35,901 bases of DNA from Candidatus Krumholzibacteriia bacterium (GCA_026387805.1 JAPLKY010000205.1:1-35901), one strand, 5' to 3'; shown: positions 25,317-35,507, counted from the first letter of the stretch. A program made the numbers and translations. The notes: a model not told the origin generated them from the letters alone.

Positions 25317-25350
25317 TTGAAGTCACAAATTGCAACTTCAAGTTTGTAAC
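25317..25350. repeat. A-type palindrome copy (TTGAAGT..ACTTCAA + GTTTGTAAC tail), imperfect
   Basis: TTGAAGTCACAAATTGCAACTTCAAGTTTGTAAC. Same family as 28380-28414, 31073-31105, 31556-31590 and 33263-33297. Confidence 0.7.
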
Positions 25351-25361
25351 TTCTTTATCAG

Positions 25362-25405
25362 CAAGGAAAAACAAAGCGAGGTGGCCGCATTTACGACCAC
25401 CTCGC
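25362..25405 (-). terminator. intrinsic terminator formed by a B-type palindrome
   Basis: On the minus strand, the GCGAGGTGG...CCACCTCGC stem (25405-25376) is followed by TTTGTTTTTCC. It lies 57 nt after the ankyrin-MBL stop. Confidence 0.55.
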
Positions 25406-25461
25406 TCAAGGATTCGCCCGGCGCCCCTCACTCGGCACCAAGTCCCCGGGCCTCCGCCCGG

Positions 25462-27489
25462 CTATATCGCTTTCAGCTGCCCGTCTTTGTACGTGAACCT
25501 GTCTCCCTTGAGTCTCGGCAGGCCCTGGGGAACCGTGCACCCGGCCTTCGCGGCCTCCGCGGAGAATTCGGTATACCGCGAGCAGGAGCTCCCCCCGTGC
25601 ATCCAGAAAACGCTCGCGGGATCGAGCTTCTCGACGCCCCACCACACGCCCTTCTTCATGGTCTCCTGGTCCCCGAAGCCGCATCCCGACACCGGTATGA
25701 ACGCCATGTCGATCTTGTGCCCGAGGCCGGCGAGGTAGTTGATCTCCTCGGAGTACACGCCGTCGATGTTCGCGTCGCGATTGTGGAGATCGCCCGAATG
25801 CAGGATCGTGAGTCCGTCGACCGTCACGAGGAACGCCACGCCCGCGTCGGTGGAGCGGGTGGCGACGATCTCCATACCGTTCACGTTCTTCGTCTGCCGG
25901 GGATCGATGAGCTCGACCGCCACCGTCGTGTCGGGACGCTGGCCGAATACCCAGGTTATGTTGCCTATGCCAACGTTCCAGGCGAAGTTCGCCTTGCTGT
26001 AATGATCCGGATGCACCGTGTGCGACACGAACGCGGTGACCTTTTTCCCCTTGAGCTCGGCCGGATTGATGCATCCGTTGAGAATGCCCGGCGCGTCGGA
26101 GGCGCGCCCGTCCTGGACGAAGTCGAAGATGAGGAAATTGTTCGCCGTCTCGATCGCCCATCCCGAGTGGCCCGTGTAGAAGACGATCGCCTCCCCCTCG
26201 GGGATGCGCTTCGAGAGAAGCTCGGCCGCGGCGACCGTCCTGCAACCGCCCTTTCCGCCCTTCGCCTTGAGTGCCTTGGCTATCTCCGTGTTGCCGTGGC
26301 GATCCGCATAGTAGAGCGGGGTGTGCCCGTCGCTGTCCTCGGCATTCACCGGGGCGCCCGATTCGATGAGGAACGTCGCGAGGTCGCCGTAGCCCTTGGC
26401 CGCGGCCGCATGAAGGCCGGTGGATTTGAATGCGCCCCCCGCGTTCGACACGTCGGCCCCCTTCGACGCGAAGTACTTCACGATATCGGTGTATCCCCGC
26501 TCGCAGGCGAGCGTGAGCGGCGTAAAGCCCTCGTCATTCCTCTTGGTCGGATCGGCTCCGGCTTCGACGAGGAGCCGCGCGATCTCGACCGGCACGTTCG
26601 GCGTCTGCGCGAAGCGATGAAGGACGTTGCTGCCGGTCTCGCCCGTCAGCTTCACGTCGGCGCCCTTTGCGAGAAGCATCCGGACCACCTCGGGATCGGG
26701 GCGCCAGAAGCTCGCCATGAGCGCGGTGAACTCGTTGAGGCGGTAGTTCGGATCGGCTCCCTTGTCGAGCAGGAGCCGCACCGCGTCTCGCTTCCCCGCG
26801 CCGGCGGCATTCATGAGGGGCGATTCGCCATCCGGCGGCACCTCGTTGGGATTCGCGCCGTTCTCGAGGAGAAATGTCATAACCTCCATCTGCCCCCGCT
26901 GGGCCGCGCCCCCGAGCGGGGTGGCGCCCCACTGGTCGGGGCCGCAGCTGAGGGAGAGTCCCGCCGCGACGAGCTGCTTGAGAACGTCGAGATTTCCGCG
27001 CCGCGCCGCGAAGTGAACGAGGCCGGTGCCTCCGGTCGCGCGGCAATCGAGCCTGGCGCCCTTCGAGGCGAGATATTGGACGGCGTCCCACTTGCCGCGG
27101 CTCCCCGCGAAGAGCACGGCGGTCATGCCGTTCACGTCGGCGGAGTTCACGTCCATCCCCTTCGCGAGCAGGAGATCGATGACCGCGGTGTTCGCGCCGA
27201 TGGCGGCGACGTGGAGCGCGTTCGAGTTCTCGTTGTCGCCGAGCTTGACGTCAGCCCCGAGGTCGAGCAGGAGCTTCGTCATATCGAGGTTCCCCGACTG
27301 GGCCGCGATATGAAGCGGCGTCGAGCCGTCGGCCTCTTTCGTCGCGAGGATCGACCGGTCGGCGGCGACGAGCTGCCGCACGGCCTGGATATTCCCCCCG
27401 CGGACCGCCTCGTGGATCTCGCCTGCCGCGACACCGGCGGCGAGGAAGAGAAGAATCATGACAATGGAAACCAACCGCACCGTACGCAT
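25462..27489 (-). CDS. secreted ankyrin-repeat protein fused to an MBL-fold (UlaG/Lactamase_B_3-like) domain
   Basis: ATG 27489 with GAGGAGG RBS gives signal peptide MRTVRLVSIVMILLFLAAGVAAG; the track start 27756 adds 89 aa of non-protein-like sequence. About 11 ankyrin repeats (GSTPLHIAAQSGNLDMTKLLLDLGADV and similar). C-terminal SHTVHPDHY...LHSGDLHN metal-site-like motifs. Confidence 0.85.
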   Translation of the reverse strand: MRTVRLVSIVMILLFLAAGVAAGEIHEAVRGGNIQAVRQLVAADRSILATKEADGSTPLHIAAQSGNLDMTKLLLDLGADVKLGDNENSNALHVAAIGANTAVIDLLLAKGMDVNSADVNGMTAVLFAGSRGKWDAVQYLASKGARLDCRATGGTGLVHFAARRGNLDVLKQLVAAGLSLSCGPDQWGATPLGGAAQRGQMEVMTFLLENGANPNEVPPDGESPLMNAAGAGKRDAVRLLLDKGADPNYRLNEFTALMASFWRPDPEVVRMLLAKGADVKLTGETGSNVLHRFAQTPNVPVEIARLLVEAGADPTKRNDEGFTPLTLACERGYTDIVKYFASKGADVSNAGGAFKSTGLHAAAAKGYGDLATFLIESGAPVNAEDSDGHTPLYYADRHGNTEIAKALKAKGGKGGCRTVAAAELLSKRIPEGEAIVFYTGHSGWAIETANNFLIFDFVQDGRASDAPGILNGCINPAELKGKKVTAFVSHTVHPDHYSKANFAWNVGIGNITWVFGQRPDTTVAVELIDPRQTKNVNGMEIVATRSTDAGVAFLVTVDGLTILHSGDLHNRDANIDGVYSEEINYLAGLGHKIDMAFIPVSGCGFGDQETMKKGVWWGVEKLDPASVFWMHGGSSCSRYTEFSAEAAKAGCTVPQGLPRLKGDRFTYKDGQLKAI

Positions 27490-27765
27490 GGGTACCTCCT
27501 CAGTGCACAGGAAACGACCCGAATTTGTAAGGCGTTGTCGTCTGGTGGGATCGGCGCGACCCCCTGTCGGTCTCGGAGCACCCCGGTATCGGGGTCGAAC
27601 CGAGCCCCCTCTCGGGCCCTGCGCCGGGCGGTGCCACCCTATAAGCCCTACCTGCTTTTTTATACAGCGGCCGGCGGGAAAAGTGCCGAGGGGGCGACTA
27701 GAATTATAGAATAGCCGCGATCCTAGCGAAATGTCGACGGCGGTGGCCACGCCCACCCCTCGAAC

Positions 27766-28134
27766 CTACTTATCGACTTCTGGATTCTCGGGCAATTCGA
27801 GCAGCTTGATGTCTTCGAGGTCGATGTCGCGGGATGCGGCCCTTTTCGAAGCGATGAGGTCGCTTTTGGAAGCCACATAAAAAGGCTGGCTCTGATACTT
27901 CATGGTTTGACGATTATCCCATGCTTGCCGGAAGCTCAAGCCCGGGGTCGATGTCTGCACATCGATACGAACCTTATCCTTGAAAACCGTGATTTCGTTC
28001 GAGAGGAGCTCTTTTTCGGTTATCAACGTCGCCCTCGGCACGCCGTAGAGAATGGCAGCCACCCCGCCGATCACTACGTACCGCACGTCATGCTTTTGAA
28101 ATGATGCGAATACGTCTTTGAGTCTGTTCAGCAT
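27766..28134 (-). CDS. nucleotidyltransferase-fold protein (MNT/AbiEii-like), catalytic DxD region apparently missing
   Basis: The N-terminus ...HDVRYVVIGGVAAILYGVPRAT is typical of small NTases. However, the expected DxD right after it is replaced by LITEKELLSNE. The tail RIDVQTSTPGLSFRQAW...ASKRAASRDIDLEDIKLL is family-like. Confidence 0.6.
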   Translation of the reverse strand: MLNRLKDVFASFQKHDVRYVVIGGVAAILYGVPRATLITEKELLSNEITVFKDKVRIDVQTSTPGLSFRQAWDNRQTMKYQSQPFYVASKSDLIASKRAASRDIDLEDIKLLELPENPEVDK

Positions 28135-28291
28135 CTTTCTTGTCCGGCAAGTTCGGGTTCAACTCGAGCGCGAGATCCGTGAAGGATACGAAAACATCCA
28201 TCCGTTCCTCGAGGGAGAGCGAGCGAAACCAGAGCGCTTTCGCCTCCGGCGTCTCATCGGCCCGACTATGGGATATCTTGTGGTTCATCAC
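28088..28291 (-). CDS. small partner protein of the NTase-fold gene
   Basis: 67 aa. KALWFRSLSLEERMDVFVSFTDLALELNPNL...KDAEQTQRRIRIISKA resembles small proteins I recall next to such NTases. It overlaps the downstream gene by 47 nt. Confidence 0.5.
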   Translation of the reverse strand: MMNHKISHSRADETPEAKALWFRSLSLEERMDVFVSFTDLALELNPNLPDKKDAEQTQRRIRIISKA

Positions 28292-28344: not shown

Positions 28345-28414
28345 GAGGAGGTCACAATTTGTGACCTCCTCCGACCAAACTTGAAGTCACAATATGCAAC
28401 ATCAAGTTTGTAAC
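28345..28414. repeat. composite B+A palindrome unit U1
   Basis: B is GAGGAGGTCACAATTTGTGACCTCCTC (28345-28371). After an 8-nt gap, A is CTTGAAGTCACAATATGCAACATCAAG plus TTTGTAAC (28380-28414). On the minus strand it reads VTNLMLHIVTSSLVGGGHKL*, like the centre of an ORF6N protein. Confidence 0.8.
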
Positions 28415-28441
28415 CCGTAGCGTTAATGGAGGGTTTCTGTT

Positions 28442-28783
28442 CTAGCGCATCGCCTGAAGAATCGTGAGGATCTTCGCCTTGAGGGCGGGGATGTCGCCCG
28501 TGACGGTGAGCCAGACCTGAGAAATCTCGACACCGAAGTAGCCGTGAATGAGCTTGTCGCGCATCCCGGCGACATCCTGCCACGGTATATCGGCATTTGC
28601 CTGACGCAACTCGGGAGAGAGCCGTTTCGCAGCCTCGCCGACGACCTCCAGCTGCCTTATCACCGCATCTTGAATCAAGCTATTGGAGAGAAACGTCTTC
28701 TCGTCGGCGCCGCCCGTGTACTTCTCGATCTTGTCGATGGCGTCGGCGATATGCCGGATATAGACCGAGTCATCACGCTTCAT
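28442..28783 (-). CDS. hepT: HepT-like (DUF86, HEPN) ribonuclease toxin
   Basis: 113 aa. The Rx4HxY motif is RDKLIHGY. An 11-nt overlap with the upstream MNT gene is the typical arrangement. Confidence 0.85.
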   Translation of the reverse strand: MKRDDSVYIRHIADAIDKIEKYTGGADEKTFLSNSLIQDAVIRQLEVVGEAAKRLSPELRQANADIPWQDVAGMRDKLIHGYFGVEISQVWLTVTGDIPALKAKILTILQAMR

Positions 28784-29063
28784 AGATTACCACGAGCTCT
28801 TTCTTGATCCTATCGCGGAGATAGGGACTGATCGCCGCCTCGGTCAAGAGGTCTACCTTGCGGCCGATCGCCGCGGAAAGATCGCGTTCCAGAGCGACGA
28901 ACGCCAGGAGACTTTTCGGGCGCGCAAAAGTCACGAGGACGTCGATGTCGCTCTGATCCGTGGCCTCGCCCCGAACGAACGAGCCGAATATGCCGATCCG
29001 CGTCACGTCGTTCTTCCGGCATATATCGATCAATTTTTGAGATTCAAAAGGCAGCTTGATCAT
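28773..29063 (-). CDS. mntA: MntA-type nucleotidyltransferase antitoxin
   Basis: 96 aa. Motif GIFGSFVRGEATDQSDIDVLV (GSx10-11DxD). Confidence 0.85.
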   Translation of the reverse strand: MIKLPFESQKLIDICRKNDVTRIGIFGSFVRGEATDQSDIDVLVTFARPKSLLAFVALERDLSAAIGRKVDLLTEAAISPYLRDRIKKELVVIYEA

Positions 29064-29083
29064 AGATTTACCTCAAATGAAAT

Positions 29084-29110
29084 CTTATAACGCGCGGCGG
29101 GTGGAGTCAA
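29084..29110 (-). promoter_or_regulatory. possible promoter of mntA-hepT (TTGACT-N15-TATAAG)
   Basis: On the minus strand: TTGACT (29110-29105) and TATAAG (29089-29084). The 15-nt spacer is short. Confidence 0.3.
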
Positions 29111-29204
29111 CGTTCAATCCGCGACCTGTCGAAAGAGATCACAAATGTCGACACATGCCGGCAACATGTCGATTCCGCCGACACGTCAGGAGGTTCTCGC
29201 CGTT

Positions 29205-29269
29205 CAATTCTGCCACAGGCCGTGGCAGAATTGCCCCGCCCAATTCTCTCACAGGTTGTGAGAGATTTG
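29205..29269. repeat. two tandem D-type palindromes (D1, D2)
   Basis: D1 is CAATTCTGCCAC-AGGCC-GTGGCAGAATTG (29205-29233, perfect 12-bp arms). D2 is CAATTCTCTCAC-AGGTT-GTGAGAGATTTG (29241-29269, one mismatch). On the minus strand D1 reads ILPRPVAELNGENL, compared with ILSQAVTELDGENL in the intact DUF1016 gene. Confidence 0.8.
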
Positions 29270-29279
29270 CGCCGGATAA

Positions 29280-29500
29280 TTAGGCCTCGCAAGGTTCGAT
29301 ACCAAGAAACTCGAAGCCATAGGGATCACGGACCGTCCAGTTGCCCCGCAGGCATTCCACTTCATAGAATGTACGTTTCAGCTCATCATCGAGATTCACG
29401 ATCAACTCAATATGGCTGTATGAAAGGCCCTGGATGAGCCGCTCTGGCGGGATCTGAAATTGTGGGGACAATGTCCCCACTTTTTCGATATCACTCGCCT
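29280..29500 (-). pseudogene. DUF1016/YhcG fragment (central part with internal deletion, no nuclease domain)
   Basis: Reads EKVGTLSPQFQIPPERLIQGLSYSHIELIVNLDDELKRTFYEVECLRGNWTVR, then jumps to DPYGFEFLGIEP and stops. This is colinear with IPWGHNLQLIFKLKDPARRLWYAQRAVEHGWSRA...DPYVFDFLTM of the intact gene. Confidence 0.6.
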
Positions 29501-29518
29501 TCGTCGGCAGCAGTGCCG
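29457..29518. repeat. 62-nt repeat containing C-type hairpin GTGGGGAC-AAT-GTCCCCAC + T5 (copy 1)
   Basis: The hairpin is at 29462-29480. The segment aligns to 32353-32414 with 5 mismatches counted by eye. Confidence 0.8.
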
Positions 29519-29552
29519 TCAATTGTGTGGGCAACGTCCGCCGTGGCCTAAT

Positions 29553-29579
29553 CTTGATGCTGCAGAATGTGACATCAAG
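29553..29579. repeat. A-type palindrome copy, degenerate (A3)
   Basis: CTTGATG CTGCAGAATGTGA CATCAAG, located 20 nt downstream of the DUF1016 stop. Confidence 0.55.
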
Positions 29580-29599
29580 TTCGAATGCTCCTGTCCTGC

Positions 29600-30631
29600 T
29601 TATCTGTCGCGCGATTTTCGAAGCTCCGATTCCAGCTCTTCGACGCTCGGCAGACTCCCTTTCAGGTCCTCGGGCAGCGTCGTCGCCAATCGGTATTCCG
29701 AGACGCCGATAGGCGCGCTCATGTTGCGCAGCGCGTATTCGGCGATGAGCCTCTTCTTCGTGCCGCACAGGACGATTCCTATGGTCGGCTTATCGTCGGG
29801 ATGTTTCAGGGTGTCGTCAACGGCCGCGAGATAGAAGCTCATCTTGCCCGCGTCTTCGGGTTTGAATGCGCCGGCCTTGAGGTCTATCACGACGAAGCAT
29901 CTCAAGCGAAGGTGATAGAAGAGCAGGTCAACGTAGAAATCGTCGCCGGCGACCTCGATATGGTACTGACTGCCGACGAAGGCAAATCCGACACCCAGCT
30001 CCAGCAAGAACTTCCGAATGTGCTCGACGAGCTCTCGCTCGAGATCTCGCTCGGCCGCGTCGGCGGACATCGTCAGGAAATCGAATACATAGGGATCTTT
30101 GATGGCCTGTTTGGCGAGGTCCGATTGAGCAGGCGGCAGAGCCGCGTCGAAGTTGGTCACGGCGCCGCCCTGACGCTCATAGAGCCCCGATTTGATCTGA
30201 TGCACGAGCACCGCCCGGGACCATCCATGCTCCACCGCTCTTTGCGCATACCAGAGGCGGCGGGCAGGATCTTTCAGCTTGAATATCAGTTGGAGATTAT
30301 GGCCCCAGGGGATTTGCTTGATGGCTGGTCGTAGATTCTCGCCGTCCAATTCTGTCACAGCCTGTGACAGAATTGTAACCTCTTCTGTGTAAGCGAGATA
30401 GAAGGCGCGCATCCTCCAGATGTTATTCTGGGAGAATCCGGGAATTCCCGGAAACGCGGCTTGAATATCTGCCGCAAGCCGCTCCACCACGGATTTTCCC
30501 CACCCTTGAAGCTTCTGGCGCTCGACTATCGACCGTCCGATGTGCCAATACAGATCAATCAGCACATGATTGGCCGCCAGGGCAGCTTCAATCCTGGACC
30601 GGGCGATTCTGGTCTTGATCTCTCCCAGCAA
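29600..30631 (-). CDS. DUF1016/YhcG-family PDDEXK nuclease-like protein, probably 5'-clipped
   Basis: 343 aa. LIDLYWHIGRSIVERQ...NIWRMRAFYLAY...IPWGHN...DPYVFDFL...GFAFVGSQYHIEV..DFYVDLLFYHLRLRCFVVIDLK (D..E.K-type core). Only a TTG start with no RBS is available. The frame upstream still reads family-like ...GYGEL until a TGA that abuts palindrome D4. Confidence 0.78.
   Translation of the reverse strand: MLGEIKTRIARSRIEAALAANHVLIDLYWHIGRSIVERQKLQGWGKSVVERLAADIQAAFPGIPGFSQNNIWRMRAFYLAYTEEVTILSQAVTELDGENLRPAIKQIPWGHNLQLIFKLKDPARRLWYAQRAVEHGWSRAVLVHQIKSGLYERQGGAVTNFDAALPPAQSDLAKQAIKDPYVFDFLTMSADAAERDLERELVEHIRKFLLELGVGFAFVGSQYHIEVAGDDFYVDLLFYHLRLRCFVVIDLKAGAFKPEDAGKMSFYLAAVDDTLKHPDDKPTIGIVLCGTKKRLIAEYALRNMSAPIGVSEYRLATTLPEDLKGSLPSVEELESELRKSRDR
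30347..30375. repeat. D-type palindrome inside the DUF1016 coding sequence (D3)
   Basis: CAATTCTGTCAC-AGCCT-GTGACAGAATTG with perfect 12-bp arms. It encodes TILSQAVTEL. Confidence 0.85.
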
Positions 30632-30668
30632 TTCGCCATAACCGGCGGGAAGGCCGGCGATCTCTCCT

Positions 30669-30697
30669 CAATTCTCTCACGGGCCGTGAGAGAATTG
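30669..30697. repeat. D-type palindrome in the ORF6N-DUF1016 intergenic gap (D4)
   Basis: CAATTCTCTCAC-GGGCC-GTGAGAGAATTG, perfect, and identical over 31 nt to D5 at 32469. Confidence 0.85.
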
Positions 30698-30759
30698 TAG
30701 CCCGGCCACCATCCTTTTGCTCAGTATGCTGAGTAATTTTACTCAATGTGTTGAGCAAA

Positions 30760-31329
30760 TTACCGCTGACTCTTGCCCTCGCTTTCAAAGCCGATGCGGC
30801 GCTTGTCCGCCGGCCCGGGCGGCGCCATGAGGCGCTTGATCGCGTCGATTATGGCGACGATCTGTTCGTCGTGGCTCGCGAGCTTGCGCTCGAGCTCTGC
30901 GAGCTTCTCGGCCAGCTCCTTGTGAGTCGCAAGGAATGCCCGCAGGCGAACGAACGCGCGAACGACAAAGACGCTCATTTCGACTGCGCGAGGAGTATTC
31001 AAGACTGAAGCCGCCATTATGGCGCCGTGCTCGGTGAAGGCGTAGGGGAGCTTGCGGCGGCCGCCCCACTCCAATCTTGAAGTTGCAAAATGCAACTTCA
31101 AGATTGTAACTTCTTTGTTTGTAAGGCAAAACGAAAAGTCTGCCGGAAAACGATCCCGGTTTCGACTGACTTGCTGATTGAGCCTCTTAGTCTCGACGCC
31201 GTATAGGTCGGCAAGGTCACTGTCGAGGATGACCTTCTCTCCCCGAATGAGCAGAATCGTACGCTCGATCTTCTCGATCGGGATAATTGGTGAATGAGGA
31301 TCTGTACGCTTGCTGGATTTACTTCCCAT
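30760..31329 (-). CDS. ORF6N (KilA-N-like DNA-binding) domain protein, copy 1
   Basis: ATG 31329 with GGGAGGTGG 6 nt upstream; track ATG 31353 is less likely. LLIRGEKVILDSDLADLYGVETKRLNQQVSRNRDRFPADF...WGGRRKLPYAFTEHGAIMAASVLNTPRAV is the ORF6N signature. C-terminal coiled-coil-like tail. Confidence 0.85.
   Translation of the reverse strand: MGSKSSKRTDPHSPIIPIEKIERTILLIRGEKVILDSDLADLYGVETKRLNQQVSRNRDRFPADFSFCLTNKEVTILKLHFATSRLEWGGRRKLPYAFTEHGAIMAASVLNTPRAVEMSVFVVRAFVRLRAFLATHKELAEKLAELERKLASHDEQIVAIIDAIKRLMAPPGPADKRRIGFESEGKSQR
31073..31105. repeat. perfect 33-nt palindrome inside ORF6N copy 1
   Basis: AATCTTGAAGTTGCA-AAA-TGCAACTTCAAGATT with 15-bp arms. It encodes ILKLHFATSRL. Confidence 0.9.
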
Positions 31330-31365
31330 CCGCCGCCACCTCCCAAACCCCATCGAGCGAAGCAG

Positions 31366-31427
31366 ATGTTATGGCACTAACTCGGAATTGTCAAGAACTG
31401 TGAGGTGGTCACAAATTGTGACCACCT
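31366..31427 (-). promoter_or_regulatory. promoter TTGACA-N17-TAACAT of ORF6N copy 1 with abutting B-type palindrome (candidate operator)
   Basis: On the minus strand: TTGACA (31394-31389), a 17-nt spacer, TAACAT (31371-31366). Palindrome AGGTGGTCACAA-A-TTGTGACCACCT (31403-31427) lies 8 nt upstream of the -35. The same layout occurs at 33191-33255. Confidence 0.6.
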
Positions 31428-31462
31428 AGAATTGTTCTTCCGAAGCCAGTCTCGCTCGCCTT

Positions 31463-31590
31463 CTGATGTTGCAAAATGAAACCTCAAACTTGTAACTTAT
31501 TTGTTCGTAAGGTTCAGCCCGAGGAGGCCGCAATTTGCGGCCACCTCTACGGTCGTTTGATATCACAATTTGTGACATCAAACCCGTAAC
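31463..31590. repeat. degenerate A copy plus composite B+A unit U2
   Basis: A-like CTGATGTTGCAAAATGAAACCTCAAACTTGTAAC (31463-31495). B is GAGGAGGCCGCAATTTGCGGCCACCTC (31521-31547). After an 8-nt gap, A is TTTGATATCACAATTTGTGACATCAAA plus CCCGTAAC (31556-31590). Confidence 0.8.
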
Positions 31591-31612
31591 TCATTGTCCA
31601 TCAATGGGCCGG

Positions 31613-32176
31613 TTATTTCTTTGGCGGCTCTCCGACGATCTCGACCCGCTCCGCGACGACGGTCACCACCGAGACGTAGCTCTTCCCCGTCCGCGCCATC
31701 GTGCTTCGCAATCTCCCGATGTCCCGCTTCGATAGCGAATCCGCCGCGCCCGATTCTCTCTGTCCGCTCACCCACGTGGAATCTTTGCACGGGGTGTTGT
31801 CGATGTGGCAGAGCAGCGCTTTTTCGCTTTCCATCCTGTCTACGTACGAGCTTTCGATGCGGGATTCTTTTGCGATCCCCCGAACTCTGACCATCTTCTT
31901 GTAGAACGATTCGTCGAAGCCGCCGCTCGAATCCCGCGGCACGATCTTGACGATCGCTCCGCCCGCGGTCATGAGCTTCATCTTCCTGCCGTCCACGCCG
32001 CAGAGATGAACAACGAGACCTTCCACCTCGACCCCGGTGTCGCGATATCTGTCGATGTGCGCCACCAGGCTGTCGGCCGGGACCTTTGCGAATGCCGGGC
32101 TCGCCGGCGCGTTGCTGCTGCCGCGGCCCAGCGACAACGCCGCCGCCAAGACGATGATCGAAAGTCCGGTTTTCAT
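31613..32176 (-). CDS. secreted hypothetical protein
   Basis: ATG 32176 (GAGAGGA upstream) gives signal peptide MKTGLSIIVLAAALSLG. The track start 32317 adds an implausible extension. No motif recognised. Confidence 0.65.
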   Translation of the reverse strand: MKTGLSIIVLAAALSLGRGSSNAPASPAFAKVPADSLVAHIDRYRDTGVEVEGLVVHLCGVDGRKMKLMTAGGAIVKIVPRDSSGGFDESFYKKMVRVRGIAKESRIESSYVDRMESEKALLCHIDNTPCKDSTWVSGQRESGAADSLSKRDIGRLRSTMARTGKSYVSVVTVVAERVEIVGEPPKK

Positions 32177-32225
32177 GATCCTCTCGCTTTCGGTTTGCAG
32201 GCGTGTGAAGATCTTCATGCGATCG

Positions 32226-32254
32226 ATTGTATCATACGGGGCAGAAATTGCCAT
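32226..32254 (-). promoter_or_regulatory. possible promoter ATGGCA-N17-(TGa)TACAAT
   Basis: On the minus strand: extended -10 TGATACAAT (32234-32226) and a -35-like ATGGCA (32254-32249). About 30 nt of this segment recur at 33370-33400. Confidence 0.35.
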
Positions 32255-32352
32255 CCCTGCGACAGCATCCGGCAGAGCTCCTACTCCTCCTGCCTCGCCG
32301 GCCAGCGCGTAGTCCACGATGTTCGTGGGAGAACCTGGCCGGCTTGAACCTA

Positions 32353-32414
32353 AAATTGTGGGGACAGTGTCCCCACTTTTTCGAGAGCACGCGCCTTCGC
32401 CGGCAGCAGTGCCG
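32353..32414. repeat. 62-nt repeat with C-type hairpin GTGGGGAC-AGT-GTCCCCAC + T5 (copy 2)
   Basis: The hairpin is at 32358-32376. See 29457-29518. Confidence 0.8.
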
Positions 32415-32433
32415 CATCAAATTTGCGCCGGAT

Positions 32434-32497
32434 AGATCCTTTACGGGCCGTGCAAGTTCTATACAGGGCAATTCTCTCACGGGCCGTGAGAGAATTG
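32434..32497. repeat. tandem D-type palindromes (degenerate D5' + perfect D5)
   Basis: D5' is AGATCCTTTAC-GGGCC-GTGCAAGTTCT (32434-32460, about 7/11 pairs). D5 is CAATTCTCTCAC-GGGCC-GTGAGAGAATTG (32469-32497). Confidence 0.8.
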
Positions 32498-32563
32498 TAA
32501 CCCATTTTGAATATGCCAGATAGAGGGCGCGCATCTTCCATATGCTCTGTCGATCTCGCCGGG

Positions 32564-33154
32564 CTACTTCGTGGGGCCTCCGTTCTTTGAGCGAAACCCG
32601 ATGCGGCGCTTGTCGGGGAGCGCGGGAGCGTCGGGCCGCGCGGGCGGCGCCATGAGACGCTTGATCGCGTCGATAATGGCGACGATCTGTTCGTCATGGC
32701 TCTCGAGCTTGCGCTCGAGCTCGGCGAGCTTTTCGGCCAGCTCCTTGTGAGTCGCAAGGAATGCCCGCAGGCGAACAAAGGCGCGCACAACGAAGACGCT
32801 CATCTCAACGGCGCGCGGCGTATTGAGGACGGAAGCGGCCATGATTGCGCCGTGCTCGGTGAAGGCATAGGGGCACTTCGTTCGACCGCCACGGCCTCCG
32901 TTTGATATCGCAAATTGCGATATCAAAGCTCTAAGCTCTTGTCTCGTAAGCTGAAACATAAAATCATCCGGAAACCGATCGAGGTTTCTGATGACCTGCT
33001 CATTCAATCTTCTGGTCTCCACGCCATAGAGCGCAGCAAGGTCGGCATCAATAATCACCTTCTCGCCTCGAATGAGCAGGATCTTATGCTCGATGCTCTC
33101 TGTGGGAATAATTGACGATTGACGAGCCGATCTCTTGCGGATTCTGTTTCCCAT
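32564..33154 (-). CDS. ORF6N (KilA-N-like DNA-binding) domain protein, copy 2
   Basis: ATG 33154 with GGGAGGTGG upstream. LLIRGEKVIIDADLAALYGVETRRLNEQVIRNLDRFPDDFMFQLT...PYAFTEHGAIMAASVLNTPRAV. The C-terminal 77 aa differ from copy 1 at one residue. Confidence 0.85.
   Translation of the reverse strand: MGNRIRKRSARQSSIIPTESIEHKILLIRGEKVIIDADLAALYGVETRRLNEQVIRNLDRFPDDFMFQLTRQELRALISQFAISNGGRGGRTKCPYAFTEHGAIMAASVLNTPRAVEMSVFVVRAFVRLRAFLATHKELAEKLAELERKLESHDEQIVAIIDAIKRLMAPPARPDAPALPDKRRIGFRSKNGGPTK
32901..32927. repeat. perfect 27-nt palindrome inside ORF6N copy 2
   Basis: TTTGATATCGCAA-A-TTGCGATATCAAA. It encodes ALISQFAIS and occupies the same codon positions as 31073-31105 in copy 1. Confidence 0.9.
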
Positions 33155-33190
33155 CCGCCGCCACCTCCCAAGCCCCATCACGCGAAGCAG

Positions 33191-33255
33191 ATGTTATGGC
33201 ACTAACCGGGAATTGTCAAGCGTTGCGGAGGTTATCGCAAACTGCGACAACCTCC
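33191..33255 (-). promoter_or_regulatory. promoter TTGACA-N17-TAACAT of ORF6N copy 2 with abutting B-type palindrome
   Basis: On the minus strand: TTGACA (33219-33214), a 17-nt spacer, TAACAT (33196-33191). Palindrome GGAGGTTATCGCA-AAC-TGCGACAACCTCC (33227-33255, one mismatch) lies 7 nt upstream of the -35. Confidence 0.6.
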
Positions 33256-33262
33256 GATCCGA

Positions 33263-33297
33263 CTTGAGGTCACAATTTGTGACCTCAAGTTTGTAAC
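33263..33297. repeat. A-type palindrome of composite unit U3
   Basis: CTTGAGGTCACAA-T-TTGTGACCTCAAG (perfect) plus TTTGTAAC, 7 nt from the B palindrome. On the minus strand, the unit (B+A, 33227-33297) reads VTNLRSQIVTSSRIGGCRSLR*. Confidence 0.85.
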
Positions 33298-33399
33298 TCT
33301 TTTATCGGCAGCGCCCGGTCCTCGGCGGAGCTCCTCGCGAGGAACTCGCCAAGCGGCTATATCGCCTTCGATCGATCGTATCATGCGAGGCAGGAATCG

Positions 33400-33603
33400 C
33401 TACTCGCGCGAGAGTTTCCGCCCGAGCGCCTTCTCGACGTCCGCGACCTTGCCCGTGAGGCGCCCCGAAGCGCCCTCGCGGTCGTCTGCATGGCGCCGAG
33501 CTTGTACGTGAGCCCCGACTTGTCGATGATGTCGACGATCTCGGCGACATGCTTGCTCAGGGGTTCGCCGACGCCGACGGGAGAGATTGAGAAGCCGGCG
33601 AGC
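33400..33603 (-). pseudogene. MTH1187/YkoF-type (UPF0045) gene copy with 103-nt internal deletion and lost start codon
   Basis: Aligns to 35199-35504. 35286-35388 is missing, and the deletion is bounded by the 8-nt direct repeat CGGTCGTC (35278-35285 and 35381-35388, a single copy at 33479-33486). Homology ends 3 nt before the position of the ATG. Confidence 0.8.
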
Positions 33604-33753: not shown

Positions 33754-35091
33754 ATGCGTGTCTCTCTCGTCGTTGTTCTCTGCTTTGGAATGCTTCTGAT
33801 GTCATGCGGGCAGCAGGAGAAGGCAAAGCAAACGAGCGGGCTTTTTCCTATCAATGCACTGGGTAAGTATGGATTCCTGGATAAGACTGGGAAAACGGTA
33901 ATTCCGCCGCAGTTCGACTCGGCGTCCCCATTTTCGGAGGGACTTGCGCTCGTCAATACGGGGGGCAAATGGGGCTATGTTGATACTCAAGGGAAATATG
34001 TCGTCAATCCTCAGTTCGACGAGGCGAAGGATTTCTCGGATGGCCTGGCGTTGGTCAGGGTCGATAGCAAATGGGGCTATATCGATAAGACCGGAAAGTA
34101 TGTGGTGAATCCTCAGTTCGAAGGAGCAGACGACTTCGCCGAGGGGATGGCGCGCGTGCAGTTCGGCGAACGGAGCGGCTTCATCGATAAGAACGGAAAG
34201 ATGGCGATCAATCCCCAATTCGATTATGCCGGGTCTTTTTCGGAAGGACTTGCTCTTGTGGCCATAGGCCAAAAAGGCGGATATATCGACAAGAAGGGAC
34301 AGGTGGTCATCAATCCGCAGTTTGATCATGCTCGTGAGTTTTCCGAGCAACTTGCGGCCATACTTGTGGGCGAGAGATGGGGATACATCGACCAGAAGGG
34401 GAAGATCATCATCAATCCGCAGTTCGAACAGGCGACGGATTTCTCCGAGAAGCTGGCGGCGGTTGATGTGGGCCATAAGTGGGGCTATATCGACAAGACG
34501 GGCAAAATAGTCATCAATCCTCAATTCGAAAGCGCGAACAAGTTCGCGGACGGTATGGCGCGTGTCGAGATCAACTCGAAATGGGGATATATAGACAAAA
34601 CGGGGAACCTCGTCATCAATCCGCAGTTCCAGAGCGCGCAGGATTTTTCGGATGGACTCGCACTCGCGCAGGGCGACGACTACAGCGGTAATGAATTCGG
34701 CTATATCGACAAGACGGGAAAATTCATCTGGACTCCTCCCGTGCAGATCGGCGGTATCTATTCCGATGTCAAGGCGGATCAGCAGTCAGGAGACGTCACC
34801 GGCACAGGGACATTTCAACTCTATTCGCAGAATGGCAGCTGGACCGGGCAATTTTGCCAGCTCCTGAGCCTGGATGGCAGCACGTACCCCTGGAATCCTC
34901 TGCAGAACGTGGTGGTCAATGAAGGGGATGCGAGCGTTTCGTTTGAAACCCTATGGATTGAGACCAATTTTTCCTTGCCGCGGGACCAGCAACCGACGAA
35001 GTGGCGCAAGGGCAGCGGCATAGCGACGAGAAAAGCGTTGAAAATCAAATGGGAGGGCGATCCGAACGAGTGCTTGTATGAGAAGCGGTAA
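33754..35091 (+). CDS. KWG/WG-containing-repeat lipoprotein
   Basis: AAGGGGGAAG RBS and lipobox LLMSC. About 11 repeats of the ..KWGYIDKTGK.VINPQF..A.DFSEGLA.V pattern (WG_beta_rep type). Confidence 0.88.
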   Translation: MRVSLVVVLCFGMLLMSCGQQEKAKQTSGLFPINALGKYGFLDKTGKTVIPPQFDSASPFSEGLALVNTGGKWGYVDTQGKYVVNPQFDEAKDFSDGLALVRVDSKWGYIDKTGKYVVNPQFEGADDFAEGMARVQFGERSGFIDKNGKMAINPQFDYAGSFSEGLALVAIGQKGGYIDKKGQVVINPQFDHAREFSEQLAAILVGERWGYIDQKGKIIINPQFEQATDFSEKLAAVDVGHKWGYIDKTGKIVINPQFESANKFADGMARVEINSKWGYIDKTGNLVINPQFQSAQDFSDGLALAQGDDYSGNEFGYIDKTGKFIWTPPVQIGGIYSDVKADQQSGDVTGTGTFQLYSQNGSWTGQFCQLLSLDGSTYPWNPLQNVVVNEGDASVSFETLWIETNFSLPRDQQPTKWRKGSGIATRKALKIKWEGDPNECLYEKR

Positions 35092-35181: not shown

Positions 35182-35198
35182 TCTGCTGCGAATGGGCG

Positions 35199-35507
35199 CT
35201 ATTCACGCGAGAGCTTCCGCCCGAGCGCCTTCTCGACGTCCGCGACCTTGCCCGTGAGGCGCCCCGAAGCGCCCTCGCGGTCGTCGATCGCGATGTGCGT
35301 GACCACGCGCTTGGCCTTCGTGCGCATGTGCCGGTGACACTGCAGGATGAGCGCCATGACCTCGGCGTCGCCGCCTTCGACGGTCGTCTGCATGGCGCCG
35401 AGCTTGTACTTGAGCCCCGACCGGTCGATGATGTCGACGATCTCGGCGACGTGCTTGCTCAGGGCTTCGCCGACGCCGACGGGGGAGATTGAGAAGCTGG
35501 CGAGCAT
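35199..35507 (-). CDS. MTH1187/YkoF-family (UPF0045) thiamine-binding-like protein
   Basis: 102 aa. MLASFSISPVGVGEALSKHVAEIVDIIDRSGLKYKLGAMQTTVEG...ALGRKLSRE is a typical family N-terminus (SxxPxG..S.S..VA). Confidence 0.8.
   Translation of the reverse strand: MLASFSISPVGVGEALSKHVAEIVDIIDRSGLKYKLGAMQTTVEGGDAEVMALILQCHRHMRTKAKRVVTHIAIDDREGASGRLTGKVADVEKALGRKLSRE

Follow-up and report, generated by a model that had tools for sequence, protein, structure and literature searches.

A palindrome at a fixed position inside ORF6N and DUF1016 genes

We analysed a stretch of 35,901 nucleotides (nt) from Candidatus Krumholzibacteriia bacterium (GCA_026387805.1, JAPLKY010000205.1:1-35901; hereafter the window), in which an islet at 28.3-33.3 kb carries two ORF6N genes, one gene of the DUF1016/YhcG nuclease family and a dense cluster of palindromes of four types (A, B, D and E). 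These palindromes are not an independent repeat family, but copies of a dyad element that lies inside the ORF6N genes (A and B) and the DUF1016 genes (D and E) themselves. Both are known, uncharacterised gene families; the family-wide, DNA-level palindrome is the noteworthy finding, and we could not find a description of intragenic palindromes in ORF6N or DUF1016 genes in the literature.

A palindrome of at least 9 pairs was present at homologous codons in 77 of 82 ORF6N genes, about 25 codons before the AFTEHG motif. Likewise, 55 of 58 DUF1016 genes contained a near-perfect palindrome with arms of 9-20 nt, which spans ~9 codons just before the IPWGH motif and encodes a peptide that varies by lineage (IVQQVVGQI, ILSQPVTEL, IGKQAVSQL, IWPRAVAKL and others). 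The consensus of the ORF6N palindrome is TCRCAAWTTGYGA, with covarying outer arms, and is distinct from that of the DUF1016 palindrome, AATTGTnnnACA-(1-3 nt)-TGTnnnACAATT. The element was also found in distant plasmid homologues of 29-50% identity (9/9 DUF1016 and 8/9 ORF6N genes), the sources of which include Klebsiella IncC, a Serratia type I restriction-modification (RM) operon, Rhodococcus, Chryseobacterium, Bacteroides, Legionella and Treponema.

The yhcG gene of E. coli K-12 contains three tandem palindromes of 12/13, 15/16 and 17/18 pairs at gene nt 303-413 (L191, NC_000913.3, 6130-6240), a region for which the annotation holds no repeat. An antisense non-coding RNA (G0-10703) has been reported to overlap the 5' region of yhcG, and yhcG deletion has been reported to be synthetic-lethal with dnaB, dnaN and parE hypomorphs. 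A blastn search of E. coli genomes with a Proteus DUF1016 gene gave no match.

Among DUF1016 genes the number of in-frame units ranges from one to three. In AlphaFold2 (AF2) models the encoded residues fall into low-confidence loops (residues 82-95 in ORF6N; residues 86-95, between two helices, in DUF1016), and a tolerant loop of low predicted local distance difference test (pLDDT) score would fit this variation in unit number. Solo palindromes of the ORF6N type are confined to the vicinity of ORF6N genes, being found upstream in 9/64 and downstream in 3/73 loci and not once in 329 kb of other flanking sequence. They often match the internal copy of the neighbouring gene and lie 12-15 nt before a TAGAAT-like -10 element.

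In the window, 13 of the 17 strong hairpins (at least 10 pairs) fall within 28345-33290, i.e., 5 kb of 36 kb, and all islet elements (ORF6N, DUF1016 and palindromes) are on the minus strand. Perfect palindromes in these 5 kb number about 15. The genes and their palindromes are as follows.

32564-33154, minus: ORF6N-2 gene, 196 aa (PF10543, E 6e-32; PADLOC PDC-S05)
30760-31329, minus: ORF6N-1 gene, 189 aa (PF10543, E 3e-31; PADLOC PDC-S05)
29600-30631, minus: DUF1016_N + YhcG_C PD-(D/E)XK gene, 343 aa from a TTG start (PADLOC PDC-S02)
32901-32927, minus: intragenic palindrome of ORF6N-2, 13+13 nt, perfect; encodes LISQFAISN
31070-31108, minus: intragenic palindrome of ORF6N-1, 16-17 pairs; encodes TILKLHFATSRL, a helix end and low-pLDDT loop
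30345-30377, minus: intragenic D palindrome of the DUF1016 gene, 15 pairs; encodes TILSQAVTEL in a low-confidence loop between N-domain helices
33228-33297, minus: solo A+B double palindrome upstream of the ORF6N-2 promoter; translates as an ORF6N-like mini-fragment, 'VTNLRSQIVTSSRIGG'
31521-31590, minus: solo A+B element upstream of ORF6N-1
31470-31512, minus: degenerate A palindrome upstream of ORF6N-1
31403-31427, minus: B palindrome upstream of ORF6N-1, 8 nt from the -35 hexamer
30669-30697, minus: perfect solo palindrome of the D type (14+14), joined to the DUF1016 gene at codon ~27
29550-29581, minus: ORF6N-type (A-like) hairpin just past the DUF1016 stop codon
28345-28414, minus: solo A+B double palindrome downstream of HepT, outermost in the cluster

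The palindromes within ORF6N-1 and ORF6N-2 occupy the equivalent gene position and are unlike in sequence. Among the intergenic copies, A+B elements translate as ORF6N-like mini-fragments (VTNLRSQIVTSS..GG) and D elements as the DUF1016 motif VTILSRPVREL. The distance between the B palindrome and the -35 hexamer is fixed in the window and its relatives, with compensatory changes. The cluster of 'mystery' palindromes in such loci finds its explanation in the genes.

The symmetry is conserved as DNA

The mean best hairpin at the palindrome position comprised 12.1 pairs in ORF6N and 12.0 pairs in DUF1016 genes, as compared to 5.7 and 6.1 pairs after synonymous-codon resampling and 5.8 and 6.1 pairs elsewhere in the same genes. 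In centred alignments of 81 ORF6N and 50 DUF1016 sequences over 13 pairs, 93% and 89% of the cells were Watson-Crick paired, versus 29-41% with the partner column slid. Changes on both sides, i.e., compensatory changes, occurred in 11 of the 13 pairs, and the covariation of 0.46 (0.15 in shuffles) was reached in 0 of 500 shuffles. Two core pairs, C20·G26 and T17·A29, are invariant. The mirrored amino acids covary in the way base pairing dictates (S-A/V, L-A, F/C-G, V-G, LS-TE and GK-SQ).

A 17-nt core, GGTCGCAAATTGCGACC, is identical in two ORF6N subfamilies and is read in two frames, giving LRSQIATS in one and EVVANCDHL in the other; in both subfamilies it is flanked by FMFQLT and PYAFTEHG. 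The palindrome of the EVVANCDHL subfamily is the B type of the window. Because the same core is read in two frames and the symmetry goes beyond codon resampling, the conserved object is the DNA and not the peptide. Part of each protein sequence is set by DNA symmetry and not by protein function, which matters for annotation, profile building and analyses of evolutionary rate.

A candidate recognition site for the gene's own protein

We consider the chances about even that the palindrome is a built-in, dyad-symmetric site for the protein of the gene that carries it and coincides with recombination boundaries, a function that we infer from sequence comparison. The element would act as a double-stranded DNA site for a dimer of the encoded protein and provide a portable, promoter-independent means of self-recognition or autoregulation, e.g., as a roadblock or auxiliary operator. 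At ORF6N loci, the extra copies at the promoter would be the primary operator. Located at recombination boundaries, the palindromes could give rise to mosaic ORF6N genes, truncated DUF1016 genes, in-frame tandem units and solo palindromes.

With no conserved neighbour in either family and a different consensus in each, the protein encoded by the gene is the one family-specific factor found together with the site in every case. In structural terms, the element is what a self-binding site should be, a position-fixed, co-inherited dyad site inside the coding region. Cis-acting dyad sites inside the gene of the binding protein have precedents in the lambda ori iterons in gene O, the pT181 origin in repC and lacO2 in lacZ. 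As in these cases, one to three tandem dyad sites lie inside a coding region, in a tolerant linker, and the sites travel with the gene while their sequence diverges and their symmetry is kept. In contrast to them, the ORF6N and DUF1016 genes lack a replicon context, their arms of 13-20 bp exceed typical iterons or operators, and binding is what we infer. The AF2 model of ORF6N has a core pLDDT of 85-91, and its top PDB matches, Dachshund/SKI winged-helix-like domains and MerR/MarR regulators, are weak (E about 0.2).

Several points weigh against a site for the gene's own protein. Perfect symmetry over 13-20 bp per arm is longer than a usual operator half-site, and arms of this length would also be compatible with a protein that recognises cruciforms or hairpins, or with template switching that corrects itself. 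A further copy at the promoter is confined to about 14% of the ORF6N loci and is hardly ever seen at DUF1016 loci, so that looping cannot be the general mode. The AF2 model of DUF1016 is poor in the C-terminal, nuclease half (pLDDT 31-58), which makes its Foldseek matches meaningless, and a PDB sequence search with the DUF1016 profile gave no match. The near absence of G·U cells from the palindrome alignments, which in itself favours symmetry of duplex DNA, comes from a count slightly biased against G·U because the sequences were picked by a detector for Watson-Crick pairs only. Finally, the recombination breakpoints described below are placed to the palindrome-containing region and not to the palindrome itself.

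A further-reaching reading, which we regard as rather unlikely, is that ORF6N and DUF1016 form an unrecognised class of 'self-marked' mobile defence-island genes, with the internal site as their own recognition target. Such genes might discriminate self from non-self among alleles or incoming elements of the same family, by immunity, exclusion or gene-drive-like cleavage and conversion. This would explain why the site diversifies rapidly and symmetrically, why ORF6N genes in tandem arrays diverge in their DNA-binding halves, and how both families came to spread horizontally to such an extreme degree with no mobility genes linked to them.

Few uncharacterised genes are as common as DUF1016/YhcG and ORF6N in RM loci, defence islands, plasmids, integrative and conjugative elements and phages, and a deeply conserved DNA element in their coding sequence offers the first concrete, testable handle on the workings of both families. 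With three palindromes in yhcG of E. coli K-12, the hypothesis is directly testable in a model organism.

Mosaic genes and debris in a hypervariable islet

The islet is a hypervariable accessory islet of stand-alone ORF6N genes, a DUF1016/YhcG nuclease-family gene and recombination debris. In relatives, the syntenic site between the Thiamine_BP and ankyrin genes holds an array of 1-4 ORF6N and 0-2 DUF1016 genes, with the following variants.

L001-L008: four tandem ORF6N genes, small unknown genes, no DUF1016
L009: DUF1016-ORF6N-DUF1016-...-ORF6N, with DUF1016 fragments
L172: a single ORF6N-DUF1016 pair

A fragment of a Y2 (IS91-type) transposase gene lies at 300-887 of L172, just upstream of its Thiamine_BP-ORF6N-DUF1016 arrangement.

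ORF6N genes of this locus have homogenised 3' halves (81-94% identity) and 5' halves of five types (67-99%). ORF6N-1 of the window is a mosaic, being 91% identical to L002d in its 3' half and 69% in its 5' half, and L002a and L009a share 99% identity in the 5' part and palindrome region and only 87% in the 3' part. The DUF1016 gene of the window is 5'-truncated: homologues of up to 96% identity have 382 aa, and the first ~39 residues are missing. In-frame stops lie upstream, the sole start left is a TTG with no clear ribosome-binding site (RBS), and homology reaches 30667, next to the solo D palindrome at 30669-30697. Further DUF1016 sequence is present as debris.

32350-32544, minus: DUF1016_N debris with a piece homologous to codons ~68-95, two D units, one a perfect palindrome (32469-32497) and one degenerate, and an E palindrome (32353-32381)
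29205-29518, minus: debris of other DUF1016 genes, with an E palindrome (29456-29486), 'LSYSHIELI...DPYGFEFLGI' and solo D palindromes (29241-29269 and 29205-29233)

That these pieces are DUF1016 debris, as the initial annotation had it, is borne out by 80% identity between 32469-32544 and the intact gene at 30347-30422, and by the match of 29280-29470 to positions 86-124 of the DUF1016_N profile (E 7e-5). The fragment at 29280-29486 belongs to another subfamily of DUF1016, the LSYSH type, and its E palindrome recurs at 32353-32381. On the plus strand a T-run follows each of the E palindromes (GTGGGGACAnTGTCCCCAC), and the copy at 32353-32381 scores on the minus strand as well; terminator-like by score, they may now serve as terminators.

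Mosaic genes, truncations that end at palindromes and solo palindromes suggest that the palindromes mark recombination boundaries. The strongest competing explanation goes further and takes them as the crossover sites of cassette exchange, either site-specific or structure-driven. Crossover between the palindromes of two ORF6N genes would move units of '3' half + cargo + promoter + 5' half', build arrays and leave solo sites behind. This would account for one to four ORF6N genes with varying cargo between them in syntenic loci, for the discordant histories of the ORF6N 5' and 3' halves, for palindromes at the ends of truncated genes, and for the frequent match of an internal palindrome to flanking solo copies. 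However, no recombinase is consistently linked, and elsewhere ORF6N and DUF1016 genes are mostly single-copy and still keep the palindrome; outside the lineage, arrays occur in only 5 of 81 ORF6N loci. Given also the resolution of the breakpoints, we consider crossover as the function of the element unlikely, albeit a serious contender.

Self-maintaining symmetry or an RNA hairpin as unlikely alternatives

Could the symmetry persist without any function? Quasi-palindrome template switching copies changes from one arm to the other and would render the symmetry self-maintaining, in line with strict Watson-Crick pairing without G·U intermediates, with the position in a low-confidence loop and with the variable unit number. 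Yet about 94% of genes, in hosts that range from archaea to Enterobacteria, have kept the element at a single position, its core bases are invariant, and the core survives a change of reading frame. Solo copies have stayed perfect while the neighbouring gene debris has decayed. Moreover, long palindromes are usually prone to deletion. We therefore hold functionless persistence to be quite unlikely.

An mRNA hairpin acting on stability, processing or translational pausing is very unlikely in our view. The element is transcribed within the gene, the length of its arms would allow a stable stem, and the E palindromes with their T-runs have a terminator-like score. On the other hand, solo copies lie upstream of promoters, and over half of the palindromes (44/83 in ORF6N and 26/50 in DUF1016) stay complementary right up to a centre of 1 nt. 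An Rfam scan returned no family and just a chance, sub-threshold microRNA match. Since G·U pairs are scarce, a 1-nt centre cannot form a hairpin loop and no Rfam family matched, a dyad or cruciform in duplex DNA is favoured over an RNA stem.

ORF6N and DUF1016 do not form a general two-gene system

The initial annotation had seen two tandem ORF6N/DUF1016 modules, each with promoter and palindromes, and had proposed a two-gene defence or selfish unit. Pfam, promoter and hairpin scans confirmed the anatomy. Both ORF6N proteins belong to PF10543 (108 and 110 bits; gathering score 27.8), and the DUF1016 protein matches PF17761 (E 2e-42, 145 bits) and PF06250 (E 9e-66, 221 bits), both above the gathering score. 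Described as near-complete, the DUF1016 gene does have both domains and the catalytic motif, but lacks its 5' end as detailed above. YhcG has been predicted to be a PD-(D/E)XK nuclease with the motif E-D-E(I/L/V)K (PMC1189080). In the window protein the predicted motif is intact (E211, D235, D250-x-K252); E211, D235 and K252 are invariant among 59 homologues, and D250 lies within 'VVIDLK'. An inactivated nuclease is thus not what the alignment predicts.

As a general system, the pair did not hold up. We surveyed 80 DUF1016 loci (50-66% identity) from archaea and more than 15 bacterial phyla, including Planctomycetota, Cyanobacteria, Acidobacteriota, Proteobacteria, Bacteroidota and Chlamydiota, as well as 81 ORF6N loci, 44 of which had at least 1 kb of downstream sequence. 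An ORF6N gene lay within 5 kb in only one of the 80 DUF1016 loci, where it was not adjacent, and none of the 81 ORF6N loci contained a DUF1016 gene. Pfam scans of the immediate neighbours revealed no conserved partner for either family, only assorted RM subunits, integrases and housekeeping genes. Among 125 ORF6N-flanking genes, seven immediate neighbours encode methylmalonyl-CoA mutase (metagenome loci L094-L171), which may mark a site of recurrent insertion within a single lineage. Viral contigs scanned for ORF6N relatives gave one locus only, and tblastn against cultured phages gave four unannotated faecal-phage contigs.

What remains of the proposal is a probable local operon in one lineage. 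Apart from the window, ORF6N->DUF1016 as an order is limited to three other locus variants, all at the syntenic site in metagenome contigs of the same Krumholzibacteria-like lineage. The full-length DUF1016 genes there (L009, L172 and close homologues) share the ORF6N RBS and first ~20 codons and lack a promoter of their own, so that DUF1016 would locally be expressed together with ORF6N, as the downstream gene of one operon. Outside this lineage, besides one further locus (L018), the sole co-occurrence is plasmid pHIC of Haliovirga abyssi (L173, 4922-9166), where DUF1016 and ORF6N lie 2.4 kb apart with a TIM-barrel glycosidase gene between them.

An obligate two-gene defence, toxin-antitoxin or homing unit, in which a DNA-binding partner guides or restrains the nuclease, is accordingly already largely refuted as a general system. 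The order in the window, its presence twice in L009 and again in L172, the shared RBS and leader, and the Haliovirga plasmid speak for it. Against it stand the survey counts, relatives with four ORF6N and no DUF1016 genes at the equivalent site, the single-gene models of PADLOC and the 5' truncation of the window's copy. We rate it highly improbable, and a tempting but unsupported ORF6N-DUF1016 'system' can be removed from the list of candidates.

The suggestion of a role in defence fares better for the single genes. Both families are PADLOC defence candidates, listed as separate single genes (the window's DUF1016 matches PDC-S02 with E 7e-146, its ORF6N proteins PDC-S05 with E about 1e-48 to 1e-51). 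Like the window genes, PDC-S02 and PDC-S05 are single genes enriched in defence islands, with an anti-phage role as candidates only; their entries make no mention of an internal DNA element, and it is in the window's lineage that the two are juxtaposed. DUF1016 genes also hitch-hike with RM and mobile genes: the Serratia gene lies between methyltransferase and hsdS, that of Chryseobacterium between methylase and helicase, and that of Klebsiella IncC beside an integrase. The family is enriched beside inversion-targeted RM genes (PMC9881135), associated with HsdMRS/McrBC (PMC2672614) and present on the Rickettsia RAGE (PMC4316617). In contrast, the window has no RM system, and the neighbours of its DUF1016 gene are ORF6N, MNT/HepT and an ankyrin protein.

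Comparison with known palindromic elements

Rickettsia palindromic elements (RPEs) are palindromes inserted in-frame into genes. Although this precedent, the many copies within 5 kb and the extra in-frame units of some DUF1016 genes recall mobile palindromic elements of the miniature inverted-repeat transposable element, repetitive extragenic palindromic (REP) or RPE kind, inserted in-frame and between genes, such an origin is barely credible given the single codon position in about 94% of homologues, a Pfam ORF6N profile that spans the element without a gap, the absence of copies from the other 31 kb of the window and from the 329 kb of ORF6N flanks, and the distinct ORF6N and DUF1016 consensus sequences.

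RPEs, the coding palindromes of Nematomorpha mitochondria (PMC6649704) and PARCEL repeats (PMC2996958) share with our element perfect inverted repeats in coding sequence of which both arms are translated. They are dispersed or lineage-specific insertions, whereas the palindrome of ORF6N and DUF1016 genes is single, ancestral and position-fixed in two families across prokaryotic phyla. REP/RAYT elements and integron attC sites resemble it as short hairpin-capable repeats with covarying stems, and in the window's lineage many copies are preceded by a constant 5' GTTAC. Here, copies are neither dispersed nor extragenic, there is no linked RAYT or IntI gene, and the palindromes are perfect and lack the extrahelical bases of attC.

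We rejected integron attC sites, since R/L boxes and extrahelical bases are both missing and the prefix GTTAC, which is simply the codons 'VT', is not conserved outside the window's lineage. Hairpins of IS608/REP-type Y1 transposases were discarded because copies are undispersed and no transposase is linked, and diversity-generating retroelement or retron templates because no reverse transcriptase is present. Programmed-inversion shufflons were also dismissed; there, DUF1016 is merely a neighbour (PMC9881135).

Promoters, spacer gene and flanks of the islet

The remaining features of the islet are listed below.

33191-33219, minus: TTGACA-N17-TAACAT promoter-like site of ORF6N-2, 10/12 matches, kept in relatives
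31366-31394, minus: TTGACA-N17-TAACAT promoter-like site of ORF6N-1, 10/12 matches, identical to the ORF6N-2 site
31613-32176, minus: lipoprotein-like gene of 187 aa between the two modules, conserved, no Pfam match
28442-29063: MNT/HepT toxin-antitoxin pair (Pfam), downstream of the islet genes

Promoter-like sites numbered five in the islet region, with 2.1 expected. Both ORF6N genes have an RBS, GGGAGGTGGCGGCGG, immediately 5' of an ATG from which the protein begins MGSKSSKRTDPHS..., and in ORF6N-1 the RBS GGGAGGTGG precedes the second ATG; as the RBS sits directly before it, this second ATG is taken as the true start. The 187-aa lipoprotein-like gene is 88% identical to a gene at the equivalent place in relatives.

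The islet had been placed between toxin-antitoxin genes. This applies downstream, where a DUF6036 nucleotidyltransferase gene (Pfam) accompanies MNT/HepT, but not upstream, where such genes are lacking. A 67-aa open reading frame (ORF) overlaps the start of the DUF6036 gene (27766-28291) and its protein has no Pfam or PADLOC match; the two may constitute a second toxin-antitoxin-like pair adjoining MNT/HepT. At 25330-27756, a minus-strand gene for a 764-aa ankyrin/metallo-hydrolase-like protein is shadowed by a 794-aa antisense ORF, most likely an ORF-listing artefact of GC-rich sequence.

On the other side, 33398-33603 and 35197-35505 form a decayed partial duplicate of Thiamine_BP (PF01910-like), 94-97% identical over two blocks. 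The two Thiamine_BP copies flank a gene for a 445-aa KWG-repeat lipoprotein (33754-35091), which looks like an insertion with the target gene end duplicated, since Thiamine_BP of relatives directly abuts the ORF6N array. Eight tandem 102-nt repeats at 33967-34738 correspond to the KWG/WG-type repeats of this 445-aa protein.

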